Shown here in pieces: positions 35,691 through 43,054 of a DNA stretch of 64,000 bases. This DNA is from Phycisphaerae bacterium. GTDB lineage: Bacteria; Planctomycetota; Phycisphaerae; UBA1845; Fen-1342. Each line of letters starts with the position of its first letter. The first letter of the stretch is position 1. The notes under the pieces are model-generated. The model was given only the letters and a program-made list of their open reading frames with translations. It was not told where the DNA came from and made no database searches. The stretch lies in assembly GCA_963675745.2 (NCBI GenBank), contig CAXXWX010000027.1:96001-160000 (forward strand). The letters run 5' to 3'. The position numbers were made by a program, and so were the translations under genes.

Positions 35691-36120
35691 CTACCGATTA
35701 ATCAGGTCGATGAACACGTCAATATCACCATTGTTCACCCAGCCGTCCCCGTTGACATCACCCAGCATGATGTCGCAATGCGGATACGCCTCCGGGTAAT
35801 CCTCCGGGTATGACATGGCGAAGACGAATGCGTCTATGTCGCCATTGTTGACCCAACCGTCGCAGTTCATATCGCCGAGCGCGAAATAGGGAACCTGCCA
35901 AAAGCCCCCGATGAGCTCGAAGTCGCCGCCGGTCAATACTTCGCCGGCGTCAGGCTGGCCGATAGTGCCGGAGAGCTCGAAATCGCCGCCGGTGGTGAAC
36001 GCCGCCCCCCCACTATCGACGGTCCACCAGTCGATGGCGAATCCCTGGGCCAGTGCTCCGGCGGCAGTGCTCAGGGTGAGCGCGGCGCTGATCGCGAACA
36101 GTATCGCTTTGCGTTGCATG
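35691..36120 (-). CDS. Small secreted protein with C-terminal dockerin-like Ca-binding repeats
   Basis: Signal peptide; IDWWTVDSGG..LSGTIGQPDAG; GDMNCDGWVNNGD and GDVNGDGWVNNGD. Confidence 0.8.
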
Positions 36121-36177
36121 ATGTCTGACTCCATTGGTGTGCTCAACACAGTTGTCCGTGGACGCTCGCGAGCGGCG

Positions 36178-38103
36178 TCACCGCTTCAGCGCCCGTCCAT
36201 CCGCACCCACCTGCAATTCCTGGTTCCGCCGGCCGGCGGGTGGCACCTGGCGCTGCGTCGGCACAACGTTCTGTTCTTCTCCGGGCTCGGCTTGCGCGCC
36301 GTCATAAGGATCGCCGAGACCCTCGGTCGGGATGTGCATCGAGTGGTCGGCCGGCGGGTTGGGGCCGTCCGCGGCTGGTCGCGTGAAGATCGCCATCCGT
36401 TGACTTTCGTAGCCTTTGCGCTTGCAGATCACCTTATAGTCAAACGTCGCGTCGGATGTGCCGCCCATCAGCTCGTGCACCGTGAAGCGATCGCCGGACT
36501 TCTTCACGTATACGCCGTTGCAGTTGTCGGTCAGCGTAACCATGACGCGCATGGGGTGCTGCTCGCTGATGGTGACGGTTTGCCGGTAGAGCGGGTCGAG
36601 CACGATCTCGGCCACGCCGTTGCGAAGCTGGCCGGAGCCGACCTCCTCGAACCAGAGCTCGGTCGCCTCGGTGCAGTACATGAGGCGCTGCTGGCCTGAA
36701 TCAAGGGTGACCGCGGCGCTCTTGCTGCCGGTCGCGGTGTAATGACCGTCGATCCAGAAGGCCACGCCGTTACCCGAGGCAAAGCCGCTGTCGATTTCGA
36801 GGACTTCGGCACCGTCTTCGGCAAACATCTCAAAGACCGAGCCGTTCTCGCCCCCGTCGAATTCCTCGCCGCGCAGAACGATGCCGTTGGTGCTGTCGTC
36901 CTGGCGCACGTCGATGCGGCCACCGCCGAAGTCCATCCCGTCGATATAAACACGCGTCGAACTGACGTCGTTGCGGACCTCGATGGCGCCGGCGTTGTCG
37001 GTCTCCTGGGCGTCGATGTGGATGGTGGTGCTGCTGTCGGCGGCGAAGACCTCGATCTCGCCGCCATCATCGGCAGCCCCGTCGCCGTCGAGCTCGATGC
37101 GGTAGCTGGCGCTGACGCCATTGGTGACGCCGATCTGGCCCGCATCTGAATTCTCGCTGTCGATGTCGATCGTGAGTATGCCGTCGTCGTTGAACATCTG
37201 GAGATCACTGCCGGTGGTGGCTTCACCATCGAGCAGGATGGTGCGATTGCCGATGTCATTGAACATCTCGATGGTACCGCCGTCGGATGACTCACCGCCG
37301 GCCATCCTGACGCGGGTGCTGCCATCGTTGTTCTGGACTGCGACCTGTCCTCCCAGGCCACCCGTGCCATAGCTGCGCACTTCGATAGCGCCGGCGGTGA
37401 TTCCGTTGTCGGCATCGTCGCCGTCGCCGTCGATTTCGACGCCCATATATCCTTCGCGTGAGCGGAGGTGCAGGACGCCGGCCCCGTCAGCATTGGACGT
37501 GCCCCAGGCGTAGACCGCCGAGCCGGTGACGGCGTTGATCGTATCGAACCAGACGCCCTGGCTAAACGTGTGGCTGGCCATTATCTCATCGATGTCGCCG
37601 TACATATAAAGCTCGCCGTCCAGTCGCGTATCGCCGTCGGCCACGTGCAGCTTCGTCTGCGGATCGGTCGTGCCAACGCCGACGTTCAGAGTGTCGTCGA
37701 CATAGAGGCCGCGCGTCTGTGTCGCGTACGGGACGGCGGTTAATGGCTGGCGCGGCGCGAGCCATGTGTAGGTTCCGCCGCCGGTGGGCACGCGTACGCC
37801 AACCTGTAGCCAGCGCGCGTCACCATCGAAGACGGACACGTCAAATTCGAGCTCGACCACAAAGAGCCCGTCCACAACATCGACGCCGTACACATCAAGA
37901 ATCGAACTGACCTGGCTGCCGCCGGTGTACGCGTCGAAGAGCACGAAGCGGAAGTCGGCGGTATCGGTGACGCGCGCACCATACTGTTTCAATTGTCCCT
38001 GGTAGGTGAATGCCGTCGAGAGCGGCCCTTGCGCCAGGGCGTATTGGCCCCCAATCATGAGTACTACCAAGCACACGTGCGTCAACACTCGCTGGTTTGC
38101 CAT
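36178..38103 (-). CDS. Secreted fibre-like beta-repeat protein
   Basis: Signal peptide, AFTYQGQL..PRQPLTAVPYA domain, VGVGTTDP, ~24-aa acidic beta repeats, TGSKS...E..E C-terminal domain. Confidence 0.75.
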   Translation of the reverse strand: MANQRVLTHVCLVVLMIGGQYALAQGPLSTAFTYQGQLKQYGARVTDTADFRFVLFDAYTGGSQVSSILDVYGVDVVDGLFVVELEFDVSVFDGDARWLQVGVRVPTGGGTYTWLAPRQPLTAVPYATQTRGLYVDDTLNVGVGTTDPQTKLHVADGDTRLDGELYMYGDIDEIMASHTFSQGVWFDTINAVTGSAVYAWGTSNADGAGVLHLRSREGYMGVEIDGDGDDADNGITAGAIEVRSYGTGGLGGQVAVQNNDGSTRVRMAGGESSDGGTIEMFNDIGNRTILLDGEATTGSDLQMFNDDGILTIDIDSENSDAGQIGVTNGVSASYRIELDGDGAADDGGEIEVFAADSSTTIHIDAQETDNAGAIEVRNDVSSTRVYIDGMDFGGGRIDVRQDDSTNGIVLRGEEFDGGENGSVFEMFAEDGAEVLEIDSGFASGNGVAFWIDGHYTATGSKSAAVTLDSGQQRLMYCTEATELWFEEVGSGQLRNGVAEIVLDPLYRQTVTISEQHPMRVMVTLTDNCNGVYVKKSGDRFTVHELMGGTSDATFDYKVICKRKGYESQRMAIFTRPAADGPNPPADHSMHIPTEGLGDPYDGAQAEPGEEQNVVPTQRQVPPAGRRNQELQVGADGRALKR

Positions 38104-38485
38104 CGTTGTCTCTCCTTGCTCCGCCCCCACTGGCCTTCAATCACGGGCCGCCTCAGACGTATTGGAACAATCGGCTGTCACGCGGCCCGTCACCTGGCGC
38201 GCCGAGCCGGCGCCGAGCGTGTACGCAGCGCCGGTCTGGAAATGTCCGATGCGCATCTTGGTCCCCAAAGATAACGTGATCTGCCCGGCGTGAATTACAG
38301 TATATCACCACCCACCGGCAATGGGGCGGTGTTTTGCAGCGTTGCAGACGGCCAAGGCCTCTTACGCCGCACGCGGTGAATGCAAGGCCAAGGCGTTGTC
38401 GCCGCTGATGGAAGAACCCCGAAGCCTCGAACGCATGGCACGGGCAAGCAGTATGAGCCCGCTGAAATCTGATGGCTGATCGCTC

Positions 38486-38527
38486 AAAAAAAGCGGCCCG
38501 CCGAGCCACTTTGTGGGTCGACGGGCC
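38486..38527 (-). terminator. Rho-independent terminator
   Basis: Minus strand GGCCCGTCGACCCAC-AAA-GTGGCTCGGCGGGCC followed by GC and T7. Confidence 0.85.
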
Positions 38528-38797
38528 TATGTAGTGTCGGCTGCCTGTATTACAGCCACGTCCGCTGCAACACATGCAGCCTACTGTTTATCACCCTTCA
38601 CAGACCACCTCCTTTCGCATCGGGCTACTTCCCGATCGGGTCCCTGGTGGGAGGACTCGTCGGGCTTTTACCCGGCCACCGGCCGTCGCCGGCGGCCACA
38701 ACCCGCAACGCGACTCGCGTCGCACGATAGGAAGCCGCGGGGGATCGGACGACACCAGCCTCTTTTGGAGCCGTCCTTACGCTCCTAAACTTCCTAC
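38486..38797 (-). ncRNA. Candidate free-standing structured small RNA with extended SD and 6-codon mini-ORF
   Basis: Upstream TTGACC-N16-GAGAAT; about 8 hairpins; terminator; no long ORF. Confidence 0.6.
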
Positions 38798-38803
38798 ACT
38801 TTC

Positions 38804-38831
38804 ATTCTCGCCCGAAAAAGCCGCAGGTCAA
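38804..38831 (-). promoter_or_regulatory. Putative sigma-70 promoter
   Basis: TTGACC (38831-38826), 16-nt spacer, GAGAAT (38809-38804); A/T tract just upstream. Confidence 0.55.
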
Positions 38832-39124: not shown

Positions 39125-39949
39125 ATGGCGCAAAACGGGCTACAGGATCTGATCGCTCACTACTCGTCGTGCGATGAGCACGCCCGCCTCAATGCCGGAG
39201 TGGGTCGGCTCGAGTTGCTGCGCTCGCAGGAGATCATCACGCGCTATCTCCCAGATCCACCCGCCGTCATTCTCGACGTTGGCGGCGCAGCCGGCGTGTA
39301 TTCGTTCTGGCTCACCGAGCGCGGCTATGAAACACACCTGATCGACCCGGTTGCACTGCACGTCGACCAGGCGCGCAGGGGCGGTCAAGGCGGCCACGAT
39401 ACCAGTCTGGCAAGCGTGTCCATCGGTGACGCGCGCCGGCTGGAGTGGCCTGATGCCGGCGTTGACGCGGTTCTGCTGCTGGGGCCGCTGTACCATTTGA
39501 CCTCACGTGAAGACCGCGTGCTGGCGCTGCGGGAGGCACGCCGTGTTCTGAAACCGGGCGGCGTCTTGTTCGCCGCGACCATTTCGCGGTTTGCATCGCT
39601 GCTGGATGCGCTCAACCGAAACCTGCTCGACGACCCGCTGTTTGCGCCGATCATTGATCGCGACCTGCGCGAAGGTCAGCACCGCAATCCAACCGACGAC
39701 CCGACGTATTTCACCACCGCCTACTTCCATCATCCGAGCGAGATTCGCGCGGAAGTCGAAGATGCCGGCCTTGTGCATGAGACGACGCTGGCCGTCGAGG
39801 GTCCGCTGTGGCTGGCGACCGATTTCGATCGTCACTGGGATGATGCCGAACGTCGCCGGCTGCTGCTTGAATTCCTGGCACGCATCGAAGCAGAGCCGTC
39901 GATCCTCGGCGTTAGCGCGCACCTGCTAACCGTGGCGCGGCGTCGCTAG
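39125..39949 (+). CDS. Class I SAM-dependent methyltransferase
   Basis: ILDVGGAAG, LLLGPLYHL and RVLKPGG motifs; GAGGAG RBS. Confidence 0.88.
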   Translation: MAQNGLQDLIAHYSSCDEHARLNAGVGRLELLRSQEIITRYLPDPPAVILDVGGAAGVYSFWLTERGYETHLIDPVALHVDQARRGGQGGHDTSLASVSIGDARRLEWPDAGVDAVLLLGPLYHLTSREDRVLALREARRVLKPGGVLFAATISRFASLLDALNRNLLDDPLFAPIIDRDLREGQHRNPTDDPTYFTTAYFHHPSEIRAEVEDAGLVHETTLAVEGPLWLATDFDRHWDDAERRRLLLEFLARIEAEPSILGVSAHLLTVARRR

Positions 39950-39975: not shown

Positions 39976-40338
39976 TCAGTCGCCGCGGTATTCAGCGCGC
40001 GCGGTACAGGTTTCCCGCACGACGATCGCCGCCAGCAAGGGCAGCTTGGGTTTGAGGTGTTGCCACAGCCAGCGGGCTAGCATCTCGGCTGTGGGGTTTT
40101 CCAGGCCTTCGATGTCGTTCAGGTGATAATGATCAAGCCGTTCGATGACGGGGCGGCATTGCGTCTTGATCTCGCCGTAGTCAATCAGATAACCCCGGGC
40201 CTCATCGACCTCGCCCTCGACGATCACCTCGACCGCGAAGCTGTGGCCGTGCAAACGCCGGCACTTGTGACCCTCTGGAAACGTCGGCAGCGAGTGGGCG
40301 GCCTCAAACGTAAACGTCTTCGCCAGTCGAATGTACAT
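39976..40338 (-). CDS. queD: 6-carboxytetrahydropterin synthase
   Basis: FEAAH, KCRRLHGH, LDH, ENPTAE and ET motifs. Confidence 0.93.
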   Translation of the reverse strand: MYIRLAKTFTFEAAHSLPTFPEGHKCRRLHGHSFAVEVIVEGEVDEARGYLIDYGEIKTQCRPVIERLDHYHLNDIEGLENPTAEMLARWLWQHLKPKLPLLAAIVVRETCTARAEYRGD

Positions 40339-40995
40339 TCACACGCCTCTTGTCTTGTCCGGCCATATCAACTTGTGCAACTGCAACCCGATGCGCGCAT
40401 CAAGCCGATCAGCCAATACCCAGCTCGCGAGTTCGGCCGGGTCGAGCACGCCATGAACCGGCGCGCAGATTACGGCCGCGCAGCGGGCTGTCAGATCGTA
40501 TCGCGCGATCACGGCGCGCGACCAGTCGTAATCGGCGCGATCGGCCATGACGAGCTTCACCTCATCGCGTCCGGTCAGCAGTTCGATGTTCCGCCACTCG
40601 TTTCGGCCGGCTTCGCCGCTGCCGGGACACTTGATGTCCATGATGCGCACCACGCGCTGGTCGACCCGGTCCATGAGCACGGCGCCCGAAGTCTCCAGCA
40701 GCACCTCGTTGAACTCGTCCGCAAACTGCCGCATCAGCGGGTAGACGGCGGGTTGCAACAGCGGCTCGCCGCCGGTGATTTCAACCAGTTGGCAATCGAA
40801 AGCCCGCACGCGCTCGCCTATCTCGGCGGGCGTCATCCACTCCCCTTCGGTGAATGCGTATTCGGTATCACACCAGGTGCAGCGCAGGTGACAGCCGGTC
40901 AAGCGTACGAAAACGCACCGTGCCCCGACGCGCGTGCCCTCGCCCTGAACCGAGTGGAATATCTCGTTGACTCGCAATCGCCGCTCGTCTGCCAT
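40339..40995 (-). CDS. queE: 7-carboxy-7-deazaguanine synthase
   Basis: EIFHSVQGEG, GCHLRCTWCDT, TGGEP and QLHK motifs. Confidence 0.93.
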   Translation of the reverse strand: MADERRLRVNEIFHSVQGEGTRVGARCVFVRLTGCHLRCTWCDTEYAFTEGEWMTPAEIGERVRAFDCQLVEITGGEPLLQPAVYPLMRQFADEFNEVLLETSGAVLMDRVDQRVVRIMDIKCPGSGEAGRNEWRNIELLTGRDEVKLVMADRADYDWSRAVIARYDLTARCAAVICAPVHGVLDPAELASWVLADRLDARIGLQLHKLIWPDKTRGV

Positions 40996-41131
40996 CGTGT
41001 GGAATTATAGTTTGGCGCAGGGGGGATGAAAGGTGGCAGGAGGCAGGAGGAGGCATCAAGGCAACTAGGCAGCGAGGCAGCGAGGCAATTGGGTTACGTG
41101 GGATGCTCGCGGCGGTCTGGGCTGCTTGCGG

Positions 41132-43054
41132 CTAGTGGGCTGGCGGGCGCTCGAATGCCCTGGCCCCTCGCGTATGCGTCTTCTTCGCCGCGGCGTTTAG
41201 CGGCAATCCGTGCTCGCGGCAGTACGAAACCAGCGCATCGATAAACGCCTGGCCCAGGTCAGCCTGTTTACGGTGCCCCACGCCAAACACTCCCAGCAAA
41301 GCCTCCGGTGAACTCGGTCGCAAGCGCGCCATCTCACGCAACGTGCGATCGCCGAAGATTACGAAAGGCGGGACGCCGCGTTGCTCGGCGATCGCGCGCC
41401 GCACGCCGCGCAGGTGCTCGAACAGACCGCGATCGATCCCCTCCCAGGATTGCGCGAGTTGAGCACCGGTCGTGACGGCCTTTTGCCTGGGAACAACCAG
41501 GCGCACTTCCCGCTCGCCGCGCAGCACCTCCCACGAGCGATCGTTGAGCTTCAGCAGCGGGCGATCGCAGTCTGTCTGCGACAGCAGCCCCTTGCCGATC
41601 AACTGATCGACCAGGCTCATGACGATATTGCGGTCCCAGCCCCTCAGCAGACCGTGCGTGGTCAGCGCGTCGTGGCCAAAGCTGCGGATCGTGCGTCTCC
41701 TTGAGCCGAGCAGCACATCAACCACGTGGCCGCGGCCGAAGTGCTCGTCGACGCGCGCTACGCACGACAGGATCTTCTGCGCCGTAACGGTCGCGTCTTC
41801 CTCATCTTCGCGCTCGCCCAGGCACACATCGCACGCCCCGCAGTTGTCCGGCTCATACGCCTGGCCGAAGTACTCCGAAATCTGCCGGTGCCGACAGCGC
41901 CCGTCAGTGCTCAACGTCCGCATATGGCCGAGCAACTTCTGCCCCGCCTCGAATACCTCCTCGGGAGCCTCGGCTTCTTCGGCGCTCATCCGCAGCAGCC
42001 GCTCCCAGCGCGCCACATCGCGCGGCGAAAAGAGCAATACGCACTCGGCCGGTAACCCGTCACGCCCGGCGCGGCCCGTCTCCTGCTGATAGTGCTCAAC
42101 AGACTTGGGCATGGCGGTGTGAATCACACAGCGCACGTCGCTGCGATCGACCCCCATGCCAAACGCAACCGTGGCCACGATCACGTCGATCTGCTCGTTG
42201 GCGAACGCGTCTTGCGTGGCACGCCGTTCGGCGGCCTCCATGCCGGCGTGATAATACGCCGCCCGCACACGCGTGGCGCGCAGCCAGTTCGCCAGGCTCT
42301 CGGTTTCGCGGCGGCTGATGCAGTAGATGATGACCGCTTCGTTGCGATGGCGTTTGACGATGTCGCCAACCTGCGCATAGAGGTCCACTTCAGGTAGGAC
42401 GCGATAGGTCAGGTTCGGGCGATCGAACCTGCCCACCAGAATCGTGGGCTCGTCAAGCCCGAGTTGGGTGACGATGTCTTCACGCACGCGCTCGGTCGCC
42501 GTCGCGGTGAACGCGTGCACACTGCAACCCGGGAAACGGTTCTTGAGCAGCGAGAGCTGGCGATACTCGCGTCGAAAGTCGTGGCCCCAGTGGCTGATGC
42601 AGTGGGCTTCGTCTATGGCGAAGGCGCGTACATCGGCACCACTGAGTAGCTGCATGAAACGTGCGGTCACGAGGCGTTCCGGTGCGGCGAAGACCAGACG
42701 CAATTGACGATCGCGCAGCGCCTGCTCAGCCGCGTTAATCTCGTCGGCCGTCATGTTGCTGTGCAGCGCGATCGCCGGATAGCCGCAGGCAACCAGCGCG
42801 TCAACCTGGTCTTTCATGAGCGCGATCAGCGGCGAGACGACGACGTCGGTGCGCTCGGCGATCAGCGGCGGCACCTGGTAGCACAGTGATTTCCCGCCGC
42901 CCGTCGGCATCACGACCAGCGAGTCACAACTATTCAGACCCGCCGCAATCGCCCGCTCTTGCAGTGGGCGCAAGCTGTCAAACCCCCAATAACGGCGTAC
43001 CGCGCGGAGGATGTCGGCTTGTTCCGGCGTCTTCAAAGCGTCGGCGAGAGACAT
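41132..43054 (-). CDS. recQ: ATP-dependent DNA helicase RecQ
   Basis: MPTGGGKSLCYQ, DEAH, QETGRAGRDG, Zn-binding, RQC and HRDC regions. Confidence 0.95.
   Translation of the reverse strand: MSLADALKTPEQADILRAVRRYWGFDSLRPLQERAIAAGLNSCDSLVVMPTGGGKSLCYQVPPLIAERTDVVVSPLIALMKDQVDALVACGYPAIALHSNMTADEINAAEQALRDRQLRLVFAAPERLVTARFMQLLSGADVRAFAIDEAHCISHWGHDFRREYRQLSLLKNRFPGCSVHAFTATATERVREDIVTQLGLDEPTILVGRFDRPNLTYRVLPEVDLYAQVGDIVKRHRNEAVIIYCISRRETESLANWLRATRVRAAYYHAGMEAAERRATQDAFANEQIDVIVATVAFGMGVDRSDVRCVIHTAMPKSVEHYQQETGRAGRDGLPAECVLLFSPRDVARWERLLRMSAEEAEAPEEVFEAGQKLLGHMRTLSTDGRCRHRQISEYFGQAYEPDNCGACDVCLGEREDEEDATVTAQKILSCVARVDEHFGRGHVVDVLLGSRRRTIRSFGHDALTTHGLLRGWDRNIVMSLVDQLIGKGLLSQTDCDRPLLKLNDRSWEVLRGEREVRLVVPRQKAVTTGAQLAQSWEGIDRGLFEHLRGVRRAIAEQRGVPPFVIFGDRTLREMARLRPSSPEALLGVFGVGHRKQADLGQAFIDALVSYCREHGLPLNAAAKKTHTRGARAFERPPAH

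Follow-up and report, generated by a model that had tools for sequence, protein, structure and literature searches.

A conserved planctomycete RNA with an extended Shine-Dalgarno sequence and a mini-ORF: a possible translation-released trap for the small ribosomal subunit

What is encoded in a long intergenic gap of a Phycisphaerae bacterium that lacks any credible long ORF, as had been noted from the sequence alone? The gap lies in a 64,000-nt stretch of contig CAXXWX010000027.1 (the window). It is flanked on one side by a divergent methyltransferase gene (39125-39949) and on the other by an ORF of 650 aa that has no Pfam match (38130-36178). Within it, the initial annotation had placed a free-standing minus-strand RNA of about 310 nt, carrying a 13-nt Shine-Dalgarno (SD) sequence and a six-codon mini-ORF and enclosed by a promoter and a strong intrinsic terminator. 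The element is real, conserved and structurally elaborate, and its parts are, in 5' to 3' order:

38804..38831, minus strand: sigma70-type promoter, -35 TTGACC, 16 nt, -10 GAGAAT, from sequence and similar sites in homologues
38486..38797, minus strand: predicted free-standing RNA of about 312 nt, its 5' end near 38797 placed by the promoter
38727..38797, minus strand: P1, long 5' hairpin (fold z -3.11), terminal loop 38765-38758
38703..38726, minus strand: P2, hairpin predicted from folding and homologues
38673..38699, minus strand: P3, hairpin with a GACG tetraloop (38687-38684) in which ACG is paired to CGU in the loop of P6
38621..38674, minus strand: P4/P5, stem-loop (z -3.93) whose loop CCCACCA (38651-38645) contributes the 5' strand to a pseudoknot with the ORF
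38601..38616, minus strand: extended SD, 13-nt core 38615-38603, from complementarity to the 16S 3' tail
38581..38601, minus strand: mini-ORF GUG...UAG (MKGDKQ, then stop), in which the P5 loop has a possible partner at +7..+10 (38595-38592)
38539..38581, minus strand: P6, two-state element (z -6.03), either one long hairpin whose loop is GGACGUG (38563-38557) or two hairpins in tandem
38486..38527, minus strand: intrinsic terminator-like hairpin with U7, from folding (z -4.98)

The proposed promoter is present at 38831-38804 and scores 9 of 12. Since 0.7 such sites are expected in shuffled sequence, the match is not significant by itself; a sigma70-like site lies upstream of 82 of 111 homologues, as against 12 of 320 control windows. 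The terminator is likewise found as described, as a hairpin followed by U7. It is missing from the list of a consensus terminator scanner, and terminator-like 3' ends are also seen in the homologues examined. The expected size holds across relatives, with a length of 294-327 nt in 58 of the 74 homologues whose ends are both callable, and the element region folds much better than shuffled sequence (z -6.21; 0 of 100 shuffles as good). Contigs from RNA libraries that differ by 0-3 letters fall inside the predicted RNA in three metatranscriptome runs from two studies, which is evidence of presence in RNA libraries only and not of transcription, one of four runs being probably DNA. The five contig pieces all lie within 38556-38753, with the flanks uncovered, and are uninformative on the ends.

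The RNA does not correspond to a catalogued family. An Rfam scan of the locus at E<=10 gave no meaningful match, riboswitch families included; matches to mir-598, AS1726, P34 and mir-6096 lie far below cut-off and were treated as chance. The earlier judgment that it is not tmRNA, RNase P, SRP or 6S is borne out, as neither family models nor ARAGORN matched at the locus and a gene for each is found elsewhere in the genome. The element itself is single-copy here. In the surrounding window, a short element directly past the terminator (38461-38484) has one match in the window and resembles both G000:C26 261789-261812 and a stretch in G041; it is possibly a small intergenic repeat. The minus-strand region 35691-38130 holds two ORFs, of 650 and 152 aa, without a Pfam match and with signal-like N-termini, the shorter of which has a C-terminal dockerin-like repeat as judged by eye. 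Upstream of the RNA, 39976-43054 (minus strand) carries RecQ-type helicase, radical-SAM (QueE-like) and PTPS (QueD-like) genes, which are not evident at 17 homologous loci.

Homologues are widespread within the order and patchy beyond it. BLAST finds the element in 16 of 36 same-family genomes. A first covariance model, built on the 3' 162 nt, matches 58 of 72 family genomes and 124 of 151 order genomes, representing all 11 families of the order and nearly always in one copy. The sole genome with two separate copies in these searches (G012:C15 2843-3002 and G012:C16 2599-2758) may reflect duplication or assembly redundancy. A second model matches 46 of 151 class genomes and 36 of 151 from the phylum Planctomycetota, and a third, broader one is no wider in range (44 and 32 of 151, respectively); whole families have no match among the genomes searched, e.g., 0/16, 0/12 and 0/8. 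Of 28 matches outside the class, 24 were inspected, and 23 have the same layout while one (L200) is false. The SD-start pattern has candidate matches in 51 of 151 phylum genomes compared with 14 for a backwards control, and an exact pattern for this subtype has 22 matches in a GTDB-wide collection, all in planctomycetes. At the 17 homologous loci, neighbouring ORFs, judged from raw translations, vary in identity and orientation.

The SD and ORF counts below refer to 136 non-redundant homologues that passed a filter requiring a stop codon. Four false model or BLAST matches (L025, L026, L112 and L200) were removed before counting, the filter rejected L177 as well as L001, which duplicates L062, and L185, although truly homologous, has a variant SD and was excluded from the SD/ORF, pairing, promoter and alternative-fold counts. 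For the loop-loop test, 25 of the 136 whose loop could not be placed were also removed (n=111). A homologue of 61.8 bits is also found in an IMG/VR record (L334, handle G459), at 1501-1666, near the record's end. It begins where a 503-aa large-serine-recombinase-like ORF (6-1517) ends and is followed by a DAHP-synthase-like ORF, both named by eye. tRNA and tmRNA genes act as integration sites, and the RNA gene may serve as one in L334.

As the initial annotation had seen, the SD at 38615-38603 is complementary to the 16S tail, here the genome's own. One further G lengthens the pairing at its 5' end, and G:U pairs lengthen it at its 3' end; the helix comprises 14 bp with one G:U, and reaching 16 bp needs three G:U. 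Across the 136 homologues it spans 11-19 bp with a median of 16, G:U allowed. In this genome the SD is the strongest non-rRNA anti-SD site of 13,902 seeds if the 16S tail runs to CUUUCU, and falls outside the top 12 if the tail ends at CCUUU. A start codon follows the GGAGGUGRU core after 2-3 nt in 132 of the 136 homologues, and is GTG in 96, ATG in 22 and TTG in 18. The mini-ORF MKGDKQ is present as annotated at 38601-38581, and its start, frame and stop are kept. The caveat is that the filter itself required a stop and that frame +2 has one within 18 codons in 116 of 136 homologues as well, the numbers being 135 for frame 0 and 74 for frame +1, and 55% in shuffles. ORFs run to 6-19 codons and end in TAG (82), TAA (36) or TGA (18). 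Length changes mostly preserve the frame relative to the post-ORF hairpin (98 homologues listed), and the stop lies a few bases inside that hairpin in most homologues, and just before it in the subtype of this genome. One same-family homologue (L081, around 1589-1640) lacks the early UAG; its frame, which is shifted, stays open for 14 codons and stops close to the P6 loop. Judging from its sequence, this homologue is a possible intermediate between the two subtypes. A separate lineage (L178-L181) has ORFs of 18-19 codons and an extra conserved 3' extension past the GACG hairpin.

A leader of about 190 nt of structured RNA precedes the SD. Five consecutive hairpins had been described there; the hairpins stand, and their number does not, as three further units lie between the long 5' hairpin and the SD. 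A 5' pseudoknot of GGACG with CGUCC gives way to a nested stem within one long hairpin, and the homologues listed fold likewise. Sequence conservation of this 5' domain is poor, and all 10 pairs of the P3 stem have changes on both sides. The P1 terminal loop, A-rich and then GGC or GGGC, recurs across the order; a pairing of this loop with GCCC before the SD was considered and is unsupported (cognate 4.64 vs 4.56±0.12). Homologues across Planctomycetota, to which the initial annotation had looked for covariation, keep the SD and the mini-ORF and reveal covariation in two contacts, one between a loop and the ORF and one between two loops.

On the ribosome, the P and A sites take up nucleotides +1 to +6 of an mRNA, and the entry channel takes those from +7 to about +12. 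It is on these latter positions that the pairing of the P5 loop with the ORF is centred, with a cognate score of 4.14 against 3.42±0.09 (maximum 3.75) in permutations of 81 homologues and 4.42 against 3.66±0.15 in 31 homologues from outside the order, values that are inflated because the permutation tests ignore relatedness, and the RNA tree resolves few of its branches (2 of 68 starred). The score reaches at least 4.5 in only 32 of the 81, and many single homologues are without convincing pairing. In this copy, the P5 loop can form only 4 bp with the ORF or, alternatively, 5 bp with the SD. The nested P4 pairing is not significant in the same permutation test (4.48 vs 4.35) and rests on the predicted fold together with compensatory cases in L107, L157 and L158.

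The second contact joins the GNCG loop of P3 and the CG-containing loop of P6. Its third pair obeys Watson-Crick rules in 81 of 111 homologues against 49.6±3.7 when shuffled, a test that relatedness likewise inflates; A-U occurs in 59, G-C in 18 and U-A in 1. In alignment A4 (71 rows) the corresponding numbers are 46, 12 and 1, with 9 unpaired and 3 gaps, and two near-invariant CG/GC pairs lie beside this position. The G-C state is confined to one 27-row part of the tree, where it is mixed with A-U rows, and thus few independent changes are shown for the pair. Many distant homologues carry a GACG tetraloop at both the P3 and P6 places. In retroviral RNAs, GACG loops are described as RNA-RNA contact elements (PMC516450). 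The same covariation signal would equally be expected from an intermolecular contact.

The region after the stop can adopt two folds. The initial annotation had drawn two hairpins here; this fold exists and is the less stable of the two alternatives. In this RNA it reaches -21.4 kcal/mol, compared with -29.2 kcal/mol for the long hairpin, and across homologues the long form is also more stable (-28.4 kcal/mol). The two-hairpin fold itself averages -20.3 kcal/mol against -13.2 kcal/mol for pair-shuffled controls, with 100 of 106 homologues below the null mean. Distant lineages form it from differing stem sequences, and in 67 of 76 non-derived cases it does not engage the stop codon in pairing.

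These observations are consistent with an RNA that traps 30S and is released by translation, and so holds or monitors small subunits, a reading that we consider somewhat likelier to be right than wrong. Such an RNA would be a mini-mRNA of the rre type that docks to ribosomes and carries an additional 5' cage, made as its own predicted transcript from a conserved promoter to a conserved terminator. Its unpaired SD and start codon would capture the whole free 16S 3' tail, to which the SD is complementary, with binding expected by analogy to rreB. The covarying P5 loop-ORF helix would lie over the channel-entering codons at about +7..+12, permitting SD docking while hindering accommodation, and the covarying P3-P6 contact would close the RNA around the SD and ORF. 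The 30S subunit would then be docked and slow to start, much as in the 'entrapment' known for S4 and S15. A rare start at the weak GUG or UUG would melt the pseudoknot, yield a sequence-indifferent peptide and stop at or inside P6; start, frame and stop are conserved. P6, both of whose folds are conserved, would flip to the two-hairpin form and the RNA would be freed for decay, comparable to the start-codon-dependent decay of rreB. In this subtype termination may melt only the base of P6, because the stop precedes P6. The most likely purpose would be to hold and shield a fraction of the small subunits, with the RNA's own turnover reporting initiation and elongation capacity.

Other functions could make use of the same features. 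One is that the RNA acts as a chaperone or quality check late in 30S maturation, covering the whole 16S 3' tail, marking or protecting its end and 'test-driving' subunits by one short round of translation. A helix that spans the whole tail at its median length of 16 bp would suit this role, as would the G found opposite the C of CUUUC in 77 of 136 homologues and a single copy like that of housekeeping RNAs. However, the 16S tail is identical in all 44 readable order genomes (of 46 listed) while the 5' end of the SD varies, so that there is no covariation to see between the two and no matched ruler is apparent; no rRNA or biogenesis linkage is evident in the neighbouring ORFs of the 17 loci, and the RNA was not found in many of the phylum genomes searched. 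We regard a maturation role as rather unlikely. Still less probable is an ordinary throttled mRNA whose functional unit is the peptide of 6-19 residues. The preserved start, frame and stop are what such an mRNA would require; among ORFs of more than 7 codons, 75 have Leu as the penultimate residue, and the peptides RreB and RreR are conserved within their clades, according to Hahn et al. (PMC5711450). Here, though, peptide positions 2-6 are near random (entropy 3.0-3.6 bits), and the Leu is encoded by a CUG of the hairpin stem and is lost in this genome's subtype through the earlier stop in another frame. The micropeptide proposed in the initial annotation is thus unlikely to be functional, since both peptide sequence and length vary, and it is the act of translation rather than the peptide that, from the sequences, appears to be conserved.

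The elaborate 5' domain raises a further alternative, in which it would bind a ligand or protein and gate translation of the mini-ORF, and hence the level of a trans-acting RNA. Its pseudoknot and loop-loop contact, the recurrent P1 loop with no assigned partner and the two-state 3' element would all befit such a sensor, whereas its poorly conserved sequence, its absence from short CC2171-type RNAs and the lack of a riboswitch family match in Rfam speak against one. A leader-peptide attenuator or cis riboswitch would be expected beside a constant downstream gene, and none is found among the 17 loci. As with a maturation role, a sensing switch has only a small chance of being correct. Among proteins of interest, the genome encodes HPF, bS21 and CsrA. 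The idea that the RNA substitutes for a missing HPF or bS21 was ruled out, both being encoded; with HPF present, it does not replace a missing hibernation factor. CsrA could in principle be titrated, as the initial annotation had suggested from about seven GGA motifs, but 7 GGA is the number expected by chance (7.6±2.3 in shuffles) and not the many loop-displayed motifs of a CsrB/RsmZ-type sponge. The loop displaying one of them is absent from the favoured fold, and most close homologues have GAACG in the loop of P6; a CsrA-titrating RNA is extremely improbable.

The trap with translation-coupled release, which remains our preferred reading, has its closest counterpart in the alphaproteobacterial rre mini-mRNAs. 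In Hahn et al. (2016, PMC5711450), rreB is described as a 165-nt RNA with a 17-nt SD running into GUG, which co-sediments with 30S and is weakly translated, its long SD and weak start slowing escape. Removal of the start codon extends its lifetime from 10 to 37 min, and 20-fold overexpression leaves growth unaffected, which the authors read against simple ribosome sequestration (PMC5711450). Because of this last result, the simple, abundant 30S sponge that had been among the earlier suggestions is weakened here as well. As is predicted for this RNA, rreB and rreR are, in the same text, stand-alone transcripts with a complement of the 16S tail up to GUG (16-17-nt class) and a short ORF (14-18 codons), in a gene context that is not conserved (for rre, outside Bradyrhizobiaceae). 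The planctomycete RNA has the complementary region directly before a short ORF, with a median of 16 bp including G:U compared with the at least 16 complementary nt of rre, this copy not being a perfect 16-17 nt as in rreB; its leader of about 190 nt and total of about 312 nt are at odds with the short leader and RNA of about 165 nt. According to PMC5711450, rreB begins 8 nt before the complementary region, which is mostly predicted in a hairpin; the long leader of the planctomycete RNA comes with a pseudoknot onto the ORF and a loop-loop clasp. The two also belong to different phyla, and the peptide is not conserved here.

Two Rfam families share parts of this design. CC2171 (RF01867), a Caulobacter sRNA, is expressed and has no condition or function assigned in the accessible text of its report (bioRxiv 10.1101/2022.01.24.477521). 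It has the same SD-start motif, and its consensus pairs ORF positions +7..+13 with a distant partner, as the same ORF stretch is paired here; the partner is 3' in CC2171 and 5' in this RNA, and CC2171-type RNAs have short leaders without the 5' domain. The CC2171 model matches 7 of 20 distant homologue loci and 1 of 20 order loci at 24.6-33.7 bits, with none of these eight reaching the 75-bit cut-off, and it does not hit the present locus. When metagenomes were scanned for the SD-start motif common to both, at least 119 stretches came up, and of 20 tested, 13 match CC2171 and 5 exceed its cut-off; a promoter was called in 32 of 120 pattern hits, and 19 of these promoters lie 11-24 nt before the SD. 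Among 55 non-redundant short-leader CC2171-like RNAs, from 85 chosen by leader motif, the stretch ORF +7..+13 pairs with a partner located 3' of the stop (6.42 vs 5.78±0.13, maximum 6.36), with compensatory cases. The two ORF-stretch pairings thus indicate that one set of ORF positions is occluded from the 5' side in the planctomycete form and from the 3' side in the CC2171-like form. A further metagenome group (L224, L225, L230, L234, L246, L323 and L326) has an extended SD and a GUG that starts a long, signal-peptide-like ORF (MSSRYL...). The actinobacterial sRNA Ms_IGR-5 (RF02471) also carries an extended SD, and its consensus around the stop resembles the post-ORF hairpin of the homologues; its model starts just before the SD, without a 5' domain, and matches 1 of 20 distant homologue loci (L196, 33.8 bits; cut-off 45), with no hit at this locus.

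The RNA probably works as the rre mini-mRNAs do and belongs with the rre, CC2171 and Ms_IGR-5 type. Rfam cut-offs and leader length place it outside the catalogued families, and what is new relative to the known type is the 5' domain of about 190 nt, the loop-ORF pseudoknot, the loop-loop clasp and the two-state stop hairpin. The proposed ribosome-binding regulatory RNA is in keeping with conservation and the rreB data, and is not wholly uncharacterised in kind. A literature search gave no description of the RNA in planctomycetes; subscription papers lay mostly outside it, and a motif catalogue could still list the RNA. Hahn and colleagues term the function of rreB elusive, leave that of the rre mini-mRNAs open and name homologues that are alphaproteobacterial (PMC5711450), and Rfam lists the related RNAs as unconnected sRNAs. 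The planctomycete form offers specific, mutable contacts in its pseudoknot over channel-entering codons, its loop-loop clasp and its two-state stop hairpin, and the CC2171-like alphaproteobacterial form would block the same codons by a different route. With these contacts, what was a curiosity becomes a mechanism for trapping and releasing ribosomes that can be put to the test. Should this mechanism be true, the RNA would represent a widespread, overlooked bacterial regulator acting on the small ribosomal subunit, and it would lend itself naturally to cryo-EM.

Beyond this type, the entrapment pseudoknots of S4 (alpha operon) and S15 (rpsO) also lie at a ribosome-binding region, where 30S binds and productive initiation is blocked, but they are cis operators on r-protein mRNAs that need a repressor protein (PMC10931766), whereas this RNA is free-standing and has no known protein partner. 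The resemblance to 6S RNA is one of function, without homology: both would be substrate mimics, with possible release by a short throw-away product. 6S RNA mimics the substrate of RNA polymerase and is released by synthesis of a short product; unlike the RNA described here, it binds RNA polymerase, and the 6S gene of this genome lies elsewhere. A bolder and on the whole doubtful extension would have this RNA store ribosomes as 6S RNA stores RNA polymerase, with a lock on the 16S tail, a P3-P6 ring around 30S, a pseudoknot plugging the mRNA entrance and release, only once the cell could sustain translation again, as mini-ORF translation opens the clasp; rre, CC2171, Ms_IGR-5 and the planctomycete RNA would then form one cross-phylum class that shares a block at ORF +7..+13.
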